A stretch of 17,496 bases of DNA from Octopus sinensis. Lineage: Eukaryota. Under the pieces are notes generated by a model. It did not search any database. It had not been told where the DNA came from and saw only the letters and a program-made list of their open reading frames with translations. The DNA is taken from NCBI RefSeq assembly GCF_006345805.1, contig NW_021824899.1, positions 1 to 17,496 on the forward strand. Reading direction: 5' to 3'. The position numbers and the translations under genes are program-made. Shown here piece after piece: positions 92 through 16,039 of the stretch (the stretch's first letter is position 1; each line of letters opens with the position of its first letter).

Positions 92-311
92 AAGGTGGCG
101 AGCTGGCAGAAACGTTAGCGCGCCGGGCGAAATGCTTAGCCGTATTTCGTCTGCCGTTATGTTCTGTGTTCAAATTCCACCGAGGTCGACTTTGCTTTTC
201 ATCCTTTCGGAGTCGATTAAATAAGTACCAGTTACACACTGGGGTCGATCTAATCGACTGGCCCCTCCCCCCAAATTTCGGGCCTTATGCCTTGAGTAGA
301 AAAGAAAAGAA
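92..311 (+). mobile_element. tRNA-derived SINE family A, full length, tail type 1
   Basis: Head AAGGTGGCGAGCTGGCAGAAACGTTAG (A-box-like), B-box-like GTTCAAATTCC, central GGTCGACTTTGCTTTTCATCCTTTCGG..TCGATTAAATAAGTACCAG, tail CCCCTCCCCCCAAATTTCGGGCCTT..AGTAGAAAAG; homologous to many other copies in this window. Confidence 0.9.
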
Positions 312-387
312 TATTTTTAATCACCCATTGAAAGTACATGTTTGACTATGATGTGTTTTCTTAAATACACGCAAGGCTTCAAATGTT

Positions 388-600
388 GATTTCAAATTTT
401 GGCACAAGACCAGCAATTGCGGGGGAAGGAATGAGTCAATTATATCGACTCCAGGACTCAACTGATACCCATTTTATCAATTCCGAAAGGACGGAAGGCA
501 AAGTCGACTTTGGCGGCATTTGAACGCAGAACAAAAGTCAGACGAAATGCTGCTAAGCATTTTACCCAACGTGCTAACGATTCTGCCAGCTTGCCGCCTT
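388..600 (-). mobile_element. SINE family A, full length, diverged, tail type 2
   Basis: Reverse complement of family A from tail (GATTTCAAATTTTGGCACAAGACCAGCAATT) to head (TCTGCCAGCTTGCCGCCTT). Degenerate TSD: AAGGCTTCAAATGTTG (373-388) vs AAGGCTTCT+GATATTG (602-610 joined to 851-857), 13/16. Confidence 0.88.
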
Positions 601-610
601 TAAGGCTTCT

Positions 611-832
611 TATTTCTTTATTGCCCATAAGGGGCTAAACAGAGAGGGGACAAACAAGGACAGACAAACGGATTAACTCGATTACATCGACCCCAGTGCG
701 TAACAGGTACTTAATTTATCGACGAAATGTAAAGTCGACCTCGGCGGAATTTGAACTTAGAACGCAGCGGCGGACGAAATACCACAAAGCATTTCGCCTG
801 GCGTGCTAACGTTTCTGCCAGCTCGCCGCCTT
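611..832 (-). mobile_element. SINE family A, tail type 3, with 18-20 bp TSD
   Basis: Runs from tail TATTTCTTTATTGCCCATAAGGGGCTAAAC to head GCTCGCCGCCTT, with a small internal deletion near 722. Flanked by TTGCCGCCTTTAAGGCTTCT (591-610) and TTGCCGCCTTTAAGGTTTCT (831-850), 19/20. Confidence 0.92.
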
Positions 833-857
833 GCCGCCTTTAAGGTTTCTGATATTG

Positions 858-1040
858 CAAAAAGGGGCTAAACACAGAGAGGACAAACAAGGACAGACAA
901 ACGGATTAAGTCGATTATATCGACCCCAGTGCGTAACTGGTACTTATTTAATCGACCCCGAAAGGATGAAAGGCAAAGTCGACCTCGGCGGAATTTGAAC
1001 TCAGAACGTAGCGGCAGACGAAATACCTATTTCTTTATTG
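858..1040 (-). mobile_element. SINE family A, tail type 3, head-less circularly permuted unit
   Basis: On + it begins inside the tail (AAGGGGCTAAACAC), runs to GACGAAATACC (1027), then restarts with the tail end TATTTCTTTATTG (1028-1040). Bounded by TATTG at 853-857 and 1036-1040. Confidence 0.9.
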
Positions 1041-4195: not shown

Positions 4196-4610
4196 ACTCT
4201 TTACTCTCTCTTTTACTCTTTTACTTGTTTCAGTCATGTGACTGTGGCCATGCTGGAGCACCGCCTTTAGTCGAGCAAATCGACCCCAGGACTTATTCAT
4301 TGTAAGCCTAGTACTTATTCTATCGGGCTCCTTTTAGCGAACCGCTAAGTTACGGGGACGTAAACACATCAGCATCGGTTGTCAAGCGATGTTGGGGGGA
4401 CAAACACAGACACACAAAATTATACACACACATATATATATATGTACGACGGGCTTCTTTCAGTTTCCGTCTACCAAATCCACTCGCAAGGCTTTGATCG
4501 GCCCGAGGCTCTAGTAGAAGGCACTTGCCCAAGGTGCCACGCAGTGGGACTGAACCCGGAACCATGTGGATCGTAAGCAAGCAACTTACCACACAGCCAC
4601 TCCTACGCCT
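4196..4610 (-). mobile_element. tRNA-derived CORE-like SINE family B, full length
   Basis: Minus strand: head AGGCGTAGGAGTGGCTGTGTGGTAAG, B-box GGTTCAGTCCC, then GTGGCACCTTGGGCAAGTG (resembles MIR CORE TGTGACCTTGGGCAAGT), internal TA/TG microsatellite and (GTAAAAGA)n tail. Near-identical to 10929-11334 and 15633-16039. Possibly one of the published octopus OR-type SINEs (not verified). Confidence 0.93.
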
Positions 4611-6951: not shown

Positions 6952-7095
6952 AAGGGCGGATTTGGATGAGAGTATCGGTAAAGAATCAGTCAAAATCTTT
7001 AGTTACATGTCCGCATCAATTGCTGATTTCAAATAATGCCAGAATCGACTTTGATTTCCCTCTTCTGGGGGTGGGGAATTAAAACCATCAAGAAT
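6952..7095 (+). mobile_element. Old degenerate SINE family A copy
   Basis: AAGGGCGG...ATCGGTAAAGAATCAGTCAAAATCTTTAG...CTGATTTCAAATAATGCCAGAATCGACTTTGATTTCCCTCTTCTGGGGGT is colinear with the family A head and core. Confidence 0.55.
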
Positions 7096-7101
7096 ACAGT
7101 T

Positions 7102-7456
7102 GATTCTAATTTTGGCAAGCAATTTTGAGAGGAGGGAATAAGTTGATTACATCGACCTTAGTGCTCAGCTTGTACTTATTCTATCGACCCCGAAATGATG
7201 AAAGGTAAAGTCCACCTTGGCAGAATGTGAATTCTAAATCTAAGGCTGGGATAAATACCTATTTCTTTACTACCCACAAGGGGCTAAACACAGAGGGGAC
7301 AAACAAGGACAGACAAACAGATTAAGTCGATTATATCGACCCCAGTGCGTAACTGGTACTTATTTAATCGACCCCGAAAGGAGGAAAGGCAAAATCGACC
7401 TCGGCAGAATGTGAATTCTAAATCTAAAGCCGGGATAAATACCATTAAGTATTTTG
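7102..7456 (-). mobile_element. Old family A copy (tail 2) interrupted by a young family A insert
   Basis: Old segment 7102-7259 resumes at 7403-7456; 41 bp of diverged sequence is duplicated (7219-7259 / 7403-7443, 39/41). Confidence 0.85.
7260..7402 (-). mobile_element. Young family A insert (tail type 3), 5'-truncated, in register with host
   Basis: TATTTCTTTACTACCCACAAGGGGCTAAACAC...TCGACCTC, near-identical to the corresponding part of the 858-1040 copy. Confidence 0.9.
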
Positions 7457-10100: not shown

Positions 10101-10149
10101 TCTCTCTCTTGTCCAGGCTATTTCTGTTCGCCTGTTATTGCTTTTGTTT

Positions 10150-10533
10150 GTGGAGGCGCAATGGCCCAGTGGTTACGGCAGCGGACTCGCGGTCATAGTA
10201 TCGCGGTTTCGATTCCCAGACCGGGCGTTGTGTGTGTTTATTGAGCGAAAACACCTAAAAGCTCCACGAGGCTCCGGCAGGGGATGGTGGTGATCCCTGC
10301 TGTACTCTTTCACCACAACTTTCTCTCACTCTTTCTTCCTGTTTCTGTTGTACCTGTATTTCAAAGGGCCGGCCTTGTCACTCTCTGTCTCACGCTGAAT
10401 ATCCCCGAGAACTACGTTAAGGGTACACGTCTCTGTGGAGTGCTCAGCCACTTACACGTTAATTTCACGAGCAGGCTGTTCCGTTGATCGGATCATGCGG
10501 AACCCTCGTCGTCGTAACCGACGGAGTGCTTCC
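10150..10533 (+). mobile_element. tRNA-derived SINE family C, full length, 13-bp TSD
   Basis: Head GTGGAGGCGCAATGGCCCAGTGGTTA (A box), GGTTTCGATTCCC (B box); perfect TSD ATTGCTTTTGTTT at 10137-10149 and 10534-10546; homologous to 12545-12912. Confidence 0.94.
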
Positions 10534-10795: not shown

Positions 10796-11137
10796 TGTTT
10801 GGCCCCTGGTCAGCCTTGATCGAACTAACCTATGATCAAAGCCGTTCCAGCTGTGACCATTGCATTTTTTTCTTATACGGGGCAAATATTGAACCATACT
10901 GTCCAATGTGTCCTTTTTTAACACTGTACTCTTTTACTCTTTTACTTGTTTCAGTCATGTGACTGTGGCCATGCTGGAGCACCGCCTTTAGTCGAGCAAA
11001 TCGACCCCAGGACTTATTCTTTGCAAACCCAGTACTTATTCTATTGGTCTCTTTTACCGAACCGCCAAGTTGCGGGGACGTGAACACACCAGCATCGGTT
11101 GTCAAGCGATGTTGGGGGAACAAACACAGACACACAA

Positions 11138-11168
<31 letters not shown>

Positions 11169-11407
11169 CATATATACGACGGGCTTCTTTCAGTTTCCGT
11201 CTCCCAAATCCACTCACAAGGCTTTGGTCGGTCCAAGGCCATAGTAGAAGACACTTGCCCAAGGTGCCACGCAGTGGGACTGAACCCAGAACCATGTGGT
11301 TGGTAAGCAAGCTACCTACCACACAGCCACTCCTACTGTAGGATATGAAATAAAGGGCAGTTGGTTGCTGCTTTTAGCAGGTCTGGTGAACACACAGAGG
11401 CTTCCTC
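10796..11407. mobile_element. Repeat family D, copy 3, split by SINE B
   Basis: Left part 10796-10928 (GGTCAGCCTTGATCGAACTAACCTATGATCAAAGCCGTTCC...TCCAATGTGTCCTT) and right part 11341-11407 (GGATATGAAATAAAGGGCAGTTGGTTGCTGCTTTTAGC) join colinearly with copies 1 and 2. Confidence 0.65.
10929..11334 (-). mobile_element. SINE family B, near full length, 6-bp TSD
   Basis: Near-identical to 4196-4610; lacks the first few 5' nt; flanked by ACTGTA at 10923-10928 and 11335-11340. Confidence 0.93.
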
Positions 11408-12544: not shown

Positions 12545-12912
12545 GGCACTCCGTCGGTTACGACGACGAGGGTTCCAGTTGATCCGATCAACGGAACAGC
12601 TTGCTCGTGAAATTAACGTGCAAGTGGCTGAGAATTCTACAGACACGTGTAGCCTTAACGTAGTTCTCAGGGAGATTCAGCGTGATAAGGCTGGCCCTTT
12701 GAAATACAGGTACGACGGAAACAAGAAGAAAGAGTGAGAGAAAGTTGTGGGGAAAGTGTACAGCAGGGATCACCACCATCCCCTGCTGGAGCCTTGTGGA
12801 GCTTTAGGTGTTTTCGTTCGATAAACACTCACATCATCCGATCTGGTAATCGAAACTGCGATCCTACGTCCACCAGTCCGCTGCCCTAACCACTGGGCCA
12901 TTGCGCCTCCAC
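12545..12912 (-). mobile_element. SINE family C, full length
   Basis: Reverse complement of 10150-10533, from GCACTCCGTCGGTTACGACGACGAGGG to CCATTGCGCCTCCAC, with a short internal deletion near 12685. Confidence 0.93.
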
Positions 12913-12950
12913 ATACATACATACATACATATATACATACATACATACAT

Positions 12951-15632: not shown

Positions 15633-16039
15633 TACTCTTTTTACTCTTTTACTCTCTTACATGTTTCAGTCATTTGACTGCGGCCATGCTGGAGCACCGC
15701 CTTTAGTCGAGCAAATCGACCCCGGGACTTATTCTTTGTAAGCCCAGTACTTATTCTATCGGTCTCTTTTGCCGAACCGCTAAGTTACGGGGACGTAAAC
15801 ACACCAGCATCGGTTGTCAAGCAATGCTAGGGGGACAAACACAGACACACAAACACATACACATACATATACATATATATGCATATATACGACGGGCTTC
15901 TTTCAGTTTCCGTCTACCAAATCCACTCACAAATCTGCTATAGCAGAAGACACTTGCCCAAGATGCCACGCAGTGGGACTGAACCCGGAACCATGTGGTT
16001 GGTAAGCAAGCTACTTACCACACAGCCACTCCTGCGCCT
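15633..16039 (-). mobile_element. SINE family B, full length with small internal deletion
   Basis: Near-identical to the other B copies; GGCTTTGGTCGGCCCGAGG is replaced by a shorter segment near 15933. Confidence 0.93.

Follow-up and report, generated by a model that had tools for sequence, protein, structure and literature searches.

How can a SINE copy begin and end within its own tail? This question is raised by a stretch of 17,496 nucleotides of Octopus sinensis DNA (the window), where a minus-strand copy at 853-1040 lacks the head of its family and carries a piece of tail in front of its unit. From the letters alone, the copy had been regarded as circularly permuted, and three origins had been proposed for it: reverse transcription once around a circular RNA, integration of a DNA circle, or copying of a tandem transcript. 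Here, the copy is compared with the remainder of its family in the window and genome-wide.

The copy at 853-1040 and its SINE family

The window contains 11 matches to one SINE family (genome, 2.72 Gb), for which a yardstick of 233 nt was built from 47 full-length copies. The family is short, noncoding, dispersed, and of high copy number, with 54,934, 13,392, and 16,146 exact genome-wide matches to its tail motifs. Its head contains two hairpins, one of them with a compensatory pair, together with A-box-like and B-box-like motifs seen by eye; ARAGORN and Rfam give no tRNA. Target duplications, mostly of 13 to 18 nt, are present in 78 of the 126 head-bearing arrays that lack an own site behind them, which fits target-primed reverse transcription. 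The family probably resembles the octopus tRNA-derived SINEs OR1 and OR2 in its tRNA-like head, shared body, and alternative tails, and those elements were reportedly described by Ohshima and Okada in 1994. OR1 and OR2 are listed as CORE-SINEs, and nothing on their self-nesting or target choice appears in the available portions of the sources that list them (PMC4824008, PMC4758252).

A partner LINE, recognizable by a tail shared with the SINE, was not found among 20 chromosomal loci bearing a reverse transcriptase (RT); these were drawn from 150 scored loci, of which the 30 best-scoring, on small contigs, were left out. The 20 loci comprise 14 of a family ending in (TTA)n, 3 of one with a (GA)n end, and three single loci; the RT families are presumably CR1-like and RTE-like. 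The best-scoring RT frames (L303-L332; C10288, C12597, C8702, and others) are on small unplaced contigs, many of them with identical scores, and may represent a very young family or foreign-organism DNA in the assembly. Also, a (GA)n-ended LINE fragment is observed inside a SINE tail, with tail sequence on both sides (L336:2326-4018).

The features around the copy are as follows, in window coordinates:

853-1040, minus strand: permuted SINE copy, a 13-nt tail end directly joined to a head-less unit
862-1027, minus strand: head-less SINE unit, yardstick positions 50-215, with the body letters of the TAGTA-tail lineage and without the last 18 nt of the tail
1028-1040, minus strand: 13-nt tail end of the preceding unit, of which 1036-1040 may be host DNA; the sequence beyond 1040 is host in runs X4 and X6
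1019-1036, plus strand: tail-to-position-50 junction 18-mer, with 40,480 exact genome matches
853-857, plus strand: left TATTG, likely host DNA, at which the odd copy was probably primed or joined through microhomology
611-832, minus strand: full-length CAATA-tail copy, positions 1-233, 89%, at an AGAA-starting site, as its lineage predicts
385-600, minus strand: older family member with a B-type tail, positions 1-174, 80%
92-305, plus strand: un-nested family member with head and B-type tail, showing the intact target site and the head hairpins

The head-less, tail-joined structure described by the sequence-only reading holds up. The 13-nt tail end (1040-1028) runs directly into position 50, and the unit that follows (1027-862) is identical to the yardstick in 161 of 166 letters (positions 50-215). 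Moreover, the copy is genuine, since contigs of two other data sets with two organism labels (runs X4 and X6) cross 1012-1640 in one piece, so that the junction beside unique DNA is not an assembly artefact. The joint expected of an empty allele (857 to 1041) is not among the 15 joints listed from the contigs of four runs, which are swamped by other copies and contain 3,238 further joints beyond those listed; the contig of run X8 ends at 1038 and hence is silent on this joint. No coding role is indicated, none of the 37 stop-to-stop frames of at least 90 amino acids overlapping 853-1040.

That the copy stops where it began is correct only in part. TATTG is present at 853-857 and again at 1036-1040, but the permutation is inexact because the match to the family ends at 862, and a comparison of 853-861 with the CAATA-type tail gives three edits in seven letters. 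Similarly, the left TATTG had been taken for host sequence that happens to equal the SINE tail. A host origin is likely because it overlaps the apparent target duplication of an older copy (842-856 versus 373-387, 11 of 15 letters by eye, suggestive only), but the equality is with the tail of the CAATA lineage only, which is atypical for the lineage of the unit: among 108 copies with the body letters of the odd unit, 90 have the TAGTA tail and 3 the CAATA tail. The neighboring full-length copy at 611-832 has a target duplication of its own (833-850 versus 593-610) that agrees in 17 of 18 letters, the 18th matching in run X4 (846 T>C). Elsewhere in the window, an inverted pair of about 390 bp (10145-10529 and 12546-12917) is 86-91% alike and 2 kb apart, and three copies (4399-4606, 11129-11336, and 15828-16035) belong to a second SINE-like family that contains (CA)/(TA) repeats internally.

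Fixed junctions and probable insertion into older copies

The junction might have been rare or peculiar to this copy, and counting it genome-wide, as had been advised, settled that point: the 18-mer has 40,480 exact matches against 0 for its reversed control, the spacing between junctions is often 184 bp, and a second junction is found in the window at 7253-7268. Genome-wide, some 40,000 places show the tail of this SINE fused to position 50 of its own head, which likely reflects the insertion of new copies into older ones. For the array census, 422 loci were fetched, mostly motif-picked and within the initial 18 Mb of contig C1; 360 of these were used, merged to 293 stretches (948 kb); the 22 tail-cut junction loci, the 30 RT loci, and the last 10 loci, which came later, were left out. 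Among 307 tail-to-family joins, 244 are at position 50 and 54 at position 17. Of 165 position-50 arrays, 138 have a full head in front and 12 a partial one, 2 set in at the start of a unit and 13 inside a unit (5′ truncation), and none is permuted, that is, starts and ends at the same inner point. Neighboring units differ by 8.1% on average versus 10.5% between arrays, with 108 of 158 neighboring pairs differing by at least 6% and 30 by at most 3%, these last mostly within a few long arrays.

A 184-nt circular RNA or DNA template, copied for one turn in the odd copy and for several in the homogeneous long arrays, would explain why the copy spans about a unit and has 5 nt repeated at its two ends, why several arrays contain 5-10 near-identical units (L122, L250, and L385), and why the unit size is within the retrozyme range given in the available part of PMC7229834, but it is scarcely tenable because the breakpoints are fixed where a circle predicts variable ones, arrays begin with heads, long ones included, neighboring units are mostly of differing age, no array is permuted, and neither a ribozyme nor folding above shuffles is found. 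Tail-cut junctions like that of the odd copy have 22 genome matches, with a pattern estimated to catch perhaps a fifth of such cases, and only the copy in the window also stops short at that breakpoint (1/22).

The sequence-only reading had itself seen no ribozyme, in agreement with all the scans performed. Up to an E value of 5, Rfam finds no ribozyme in 1-1300 (just three weak microRNA-precursor matches, because two inverted SINE copies are in this region), the hammerhead core CTGANGA is absent from both strands of the doubled unit, and an HDV-like nested double pseudoknot is found on neither strand by a home-made topology scan that can miss variants. Linear folding of the permuted stretch is not more stable than that of shuffles (z +0.38), and circular folding of the unit gives z +1.2 and +1.7 versus letter shuffles. 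Non-LTR retrozymes of metazoans carry hammerheads and are highly self-paired, according to the available text of PMC7229834. The family shares with them low GC and short tandem units of 150-450 bp (184 bp here) but, unlike them, has no hammerhead and no strong self-pairing, bears a putative Pol III head and target duplications, and consists of units of mostly different ages.

That new copies insert into older copies of the same SINE at one fixed base is very probable. In 91 arrays formed by a head, a unit, and further units up to a last one, the head and the last unit are correlated in divergence (rho 0.41, p 5e-5), the head and the first unit are not (rho 0.10); the result is the same in the first 78 arrays, and in the 69 arrays without a G45/C50 head, the correlation of head with last unit rises to rho 0.52. 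Also, the first unit is younger than the last (4.8% versus 7.1%; 64 versus 22 arrays, p 7e-6), and the last unit has an older, different tail in 73 of 150 arrays. A head-site-head pattern has 77 genome matches, and of 10 distinct places read, 5 are nested, 4 are tandem head repeats, and 1 is neither. The nested ones consist of old head, a duplication of 15-16 nt, a full new copy, the duplication again, and old body, with private letters on both duplicates at two loci (L033 and L045). The second junction in the window belongs to a comparable pair:

7260-7443, minus strand: second head-less unit, which appears nested into an old copy, its first 45 nt being old target sequence and the rest young
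7094-7259, minus strand: old B-tail copy, the target of that unit

The first 45 nt of the unit (7443-7260) match the downstream old copy in 42 of 45 letters versus 32 of 47 for the yardstick, and its last 64 nt match the yardstick in 61 of 64, so that in the pair (7094-7443) sequence from the target is on both sides of the new unit. With respect to frequency, 100 consecutive exact TAGTA tails split into 46 at position 50, 50 outside the family, and 4 at other family positions. The use of own sites exceeds that of other GGTA sites roughly 200-fold, a rough estimate based on about 14 own sites per 120 kb of untargeted DNA and on GGTA at 0.3% of positions. A test for hidden duplications in 62 dimers is weakly positive: at positions 56-60, 4 of 15 variants are shared (0.5 expected), and at positions 61-65, 11 of 73 (7.8 expected, not significant), with some distant bins raised too.

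The arrays could instead be copies of a few dimer or multimer masters, or be generated by an RT that jumps between RNA ends, with no nesting needed. Template jumping is known, as reported in the available part of PMC6895275, and 5′-truncated dimers exist, such as the one at locus L290, whose truncation and target duplication indicate that dimer RNA was copied. A single target duplication flanks the array as a whole, and in 22 of the 91 arrays, a young G45/C50 head precedes an old last unit, for which head replacement or another route is needed. However, the head follows the last unit and not the first, the ages of first and last units are nearly unrelated (rho 0.09), and among the last units of those 22 arrays only 1 of 231 pairs shares at least three private changes. 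Given, in addition, the duplications with private letters and the same site bias in unrelated DNA, this explanation is quite improbable.

Serial insertion leaves the 30 near-identical neighboring pairs unexplained; in these few long arrays, DNA-level expansion or repeated copying may have operated. Long arrays of 6-11 units (L122-L131, L250, L385, L218, and L197), some with 0-4% between neighbors, still have the head first, and two of them (L122 and L250) are flanked by apparently one target duplication. SINE-derived satellites of squamates, as described in the available portion of PMC10702118, also consist of tandem units from part of a SINE, box B included, and that source credits mainly unequal recombination and mentions insertion at the same locus as more probable. 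In those satellites, homogeneous units arise by DNA-level amplification, whereas just 30 of 158 pairs here differ by at most 3% and most units seem to have been inserted separately; the few homogeneous long arrays may be due to DNA-level expansion. Heads alone, with about 16-27 nt more, are also repeated in tandem before a full copy, with a 65-76 bp period and up to 10 copies (L034-L042, L046-L048, and L058-L060; G000:C3430:1373-2207). Expansion between target duplications and repeated template switching are possible origins of these repeats. In run X14 (organism E), the A-type tail is covered at low depth compared with the body and no 1037-to-862 joint is present, in contrast to X4, X6, and X8; this hints weakly at a lineage-restricted nesting burst.

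Target choice by lineage

The two fixed sites are used differently by the tail lineages. With the TAGTA tail, GGTATTTCG has 24,284 genome matches versus 174 for AGAAACGTT, the second head site, and with the CAATA tail, the latter has 1,604 versus 554 for the former, which corresponds to an odds ratio of 404 between tail lineage and own-head site. In unrelated DNA, the duplication copies on both sides share the same short starting motifs. Of 70 T-tail copies, 22 have a duplication that begins with GGTA and 1 has one that begins with AGAA; the corresponding figures for 52 CAATA-tail copies are 0 and 14, TATA sites being used by both. Among the first 100 genome matches listed for each pattern, 96 are T-tail for GGTA-not-T and 86 are C-tail for AGAA-not-A. 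The head also carries information on the target. Single TAGTA copies with a G45/C50 head are at TA sites in 16 cases and at GG sites in 5 (n = 26), and single T-tail copies with a T45/G50 head in 2 and 22, respectively (n = 32), so that a head marker 180 nt from the tail predicts the target class (16:5 versus 2:22, p 3e-6).

Moreover, the own-head sequence is matched over exactly 4 letters in 6,010 cases, over exactly 5 in 6,892, and over exactly 6 in 4,253, counts that include some mutated own sites. Longer sites are about threefold rarer per letter, and therefore use per site is estimated to climb several-fold with each extra letter. The change from T-G to G-C at positions 45/50, a compensatory change in the second head hairpin, is observed in about half of the exact young heads. 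With G45/C50 the GGTA site is lost, and junctions with C at position 50 number 418, about 1%, versus 49 C50 heads among the 100 heads listed.

Other observations concern the two sites. At loci L106 and L084, copies of both lineages are in the head of another SINE family, presumably the OK family, with GGTA and AGAA starts four bases apart according to lineage. At locus L242 (minus strand, an array from position 17), the head and a B-type tail are merged via a common AGAAT, and tail ends resembling the position-17 site in this way are a possible origin of self-targeting.

The same preferences could be set by protein, with successive LINE endonucleases that prefer GGTA, AGAA, or TATA and are most efficient where loop meets stem in the two head hairpins; RNA pairing would then matter little. 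Both own sites are at hairpin loop borders, the preferred starts all fit one loose motif, (G/A/T)(G/A)(T/A)A, and the compensatory nature of the T45/G50 to G45/C50 change is apparent in the 100 heads listed (48 GC, 51 TG, 1 TC, and 0 GG). Also, the median divergences of the lineages are 1.5%, 3.0%, 5.0%, and 6.0%; since they differ in age, apparent inheritance could also result from partner enzymes that changed with time. Nonetheless, GG sites are common to the youngest (1.5%) and an older (5%) lineage and the intermediate one (3%) prefers TA. Copies with the same tail differ in target according to the head marker, the match decays along the exact own-head sequence, and the use of own sites exceeds the expectation from a 4-letter motif by the estimated 200-fold given above. 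A protein-set choice is therefore considered unlikely, and the balance leans somewhat toward guidance of the landing site by RNA.

A proposed route and its meaning for the family

The preferred reading, which we consider probable with some reserve, is target-primed reverse transcription into older copies, at a site chosen by pairing between the flank of a read-through RNA and the nicked DNA. A run of four T, the usual Pol III stop according to the available part of PMC4758252, is absent from the yardstick, so that transcripts should run into the flank. Pol III would start in the head and read past the tail, and the resulting extension would depend on where the source sits: GGTATTT after nesting at position 50, AGAAAC after nesting at position 17, and TATA within an AT repeat. 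A borrowed LINE protein would bind the tail stem-loop and nick DNA loosely, and priming would be best where the nicked end pairs with the extension, older SINE copies offering the longest match. The new strand would usually anneal to the matching part of the old copy and close one unit later, the usual product being an old head, a new 184-nt unit, and an old body with no visible duplication; rarely, without annealing, a full copy with a duplication of 15-16 nt would be left. These closing steps, which are partly documented, would make each nested copy a new source with the same extension, and target choice would thus be inherited by each lineage. Such an inherited, RNA-encoded target address, with self-homing lineages having built the roughly 40,000 head-less junctions and the head of the G45/C50 lineage being nearly immune, is in our judgment evenly poised between true and false.

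The odd copy is likely a rare, roughly one-off by-product of this abundant SINE. Its priming would have occurred about 12 nt early, from a multimeric RNA on an AATA site of the host, with closure one unit further on. Of the origins proposed from the letters, the tandem transcript fits this copy best, but the cause of the junction itself, nested self-insertion with lineage-specific targets, had not been foreseen. The proposed mechanism gives no account of the three edits at 858-863 and of the lineage-atypical CAATA, and early priming and an origin by deletion or repair are judged about equally probable. In the latter case, a nested dimer would have suffered two deletions, or an array would have served as template for a DNA repair patch, with TATTG present by chance. 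This account, held only tentatively, agrees with the lack of a 13-18 nt duplication around the copy, with the poor match of its end region to the tail, and with its being the sole case of its type found, but it has to leave to coincidence that both ends are at the same tail position, on an AATA site already used by an older copy, where a single annealing rule accounts for both.

Several known systems share features with the family, as far as the available parts of the cited sources extend. Alu self-insertion has two hotspots, the A-rich linker as well as the tail, enriched at most 10-fold (183 of 1,304 insertions), which are explained by poly(A) pairing and local hopping and termed feed-forward (bioRxiv 10.1101/2025.02.26.640385). 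Like Alu, the SINE described here prefers its own older copies and has two hotspots. However, its sites are single bases in mixed sequence within the putative promoter and take about half of the insertions of one lineage, the duplication is usually erased, and the sites differ by lineage. In SART1Bm and R1Bm, the RNA is reported to pair with the nicked target during priming (PMC7265360), and for R2Bm, the new strand has been proposed to anneal to target sequence upstream (PMC6895275). As in these elements, target-matching RNA would aid priming, and upstream annealing would give seamless 5′ junctions. Nevertheless, SART1Bm, R1Bm, and R2Bm are autonomous, with sequence-specific endonucleases and fixed host targets (rDNA and telomere), whereas the element here is noncoding, targets itself, and appears to switch targets by lineage. 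No literature report of base-exact self-nesting with lineage-specific targets was found, nor one of self-nesting in this SINE family, the available portions of PMC10886601 and PMC4824008 included; the 1994 octopus paper, the 2015 genome paper, or repeat libraries may note dimers.

Two cautions follow for work on this family: reads across the junction and products of divergent-primer PCR will look like circular RNA, and the age obtained for a whole dimer is a mixture. If the proposed route is true, the target choice of a borrowed LINE enzyme would be reprogrammable by a few bases behind the SINE tail, and this setting would be heritable. The respective shares of RNA-DNA pairing and endonuclease in target selection by non-LTR elements would then become directly testable. 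Moreover, dispersed SINEs would give rise to tandem repeats without circles or unequal crossing-over, and the SINE may multiply in harmless sites, reusing the old half of a promoter.
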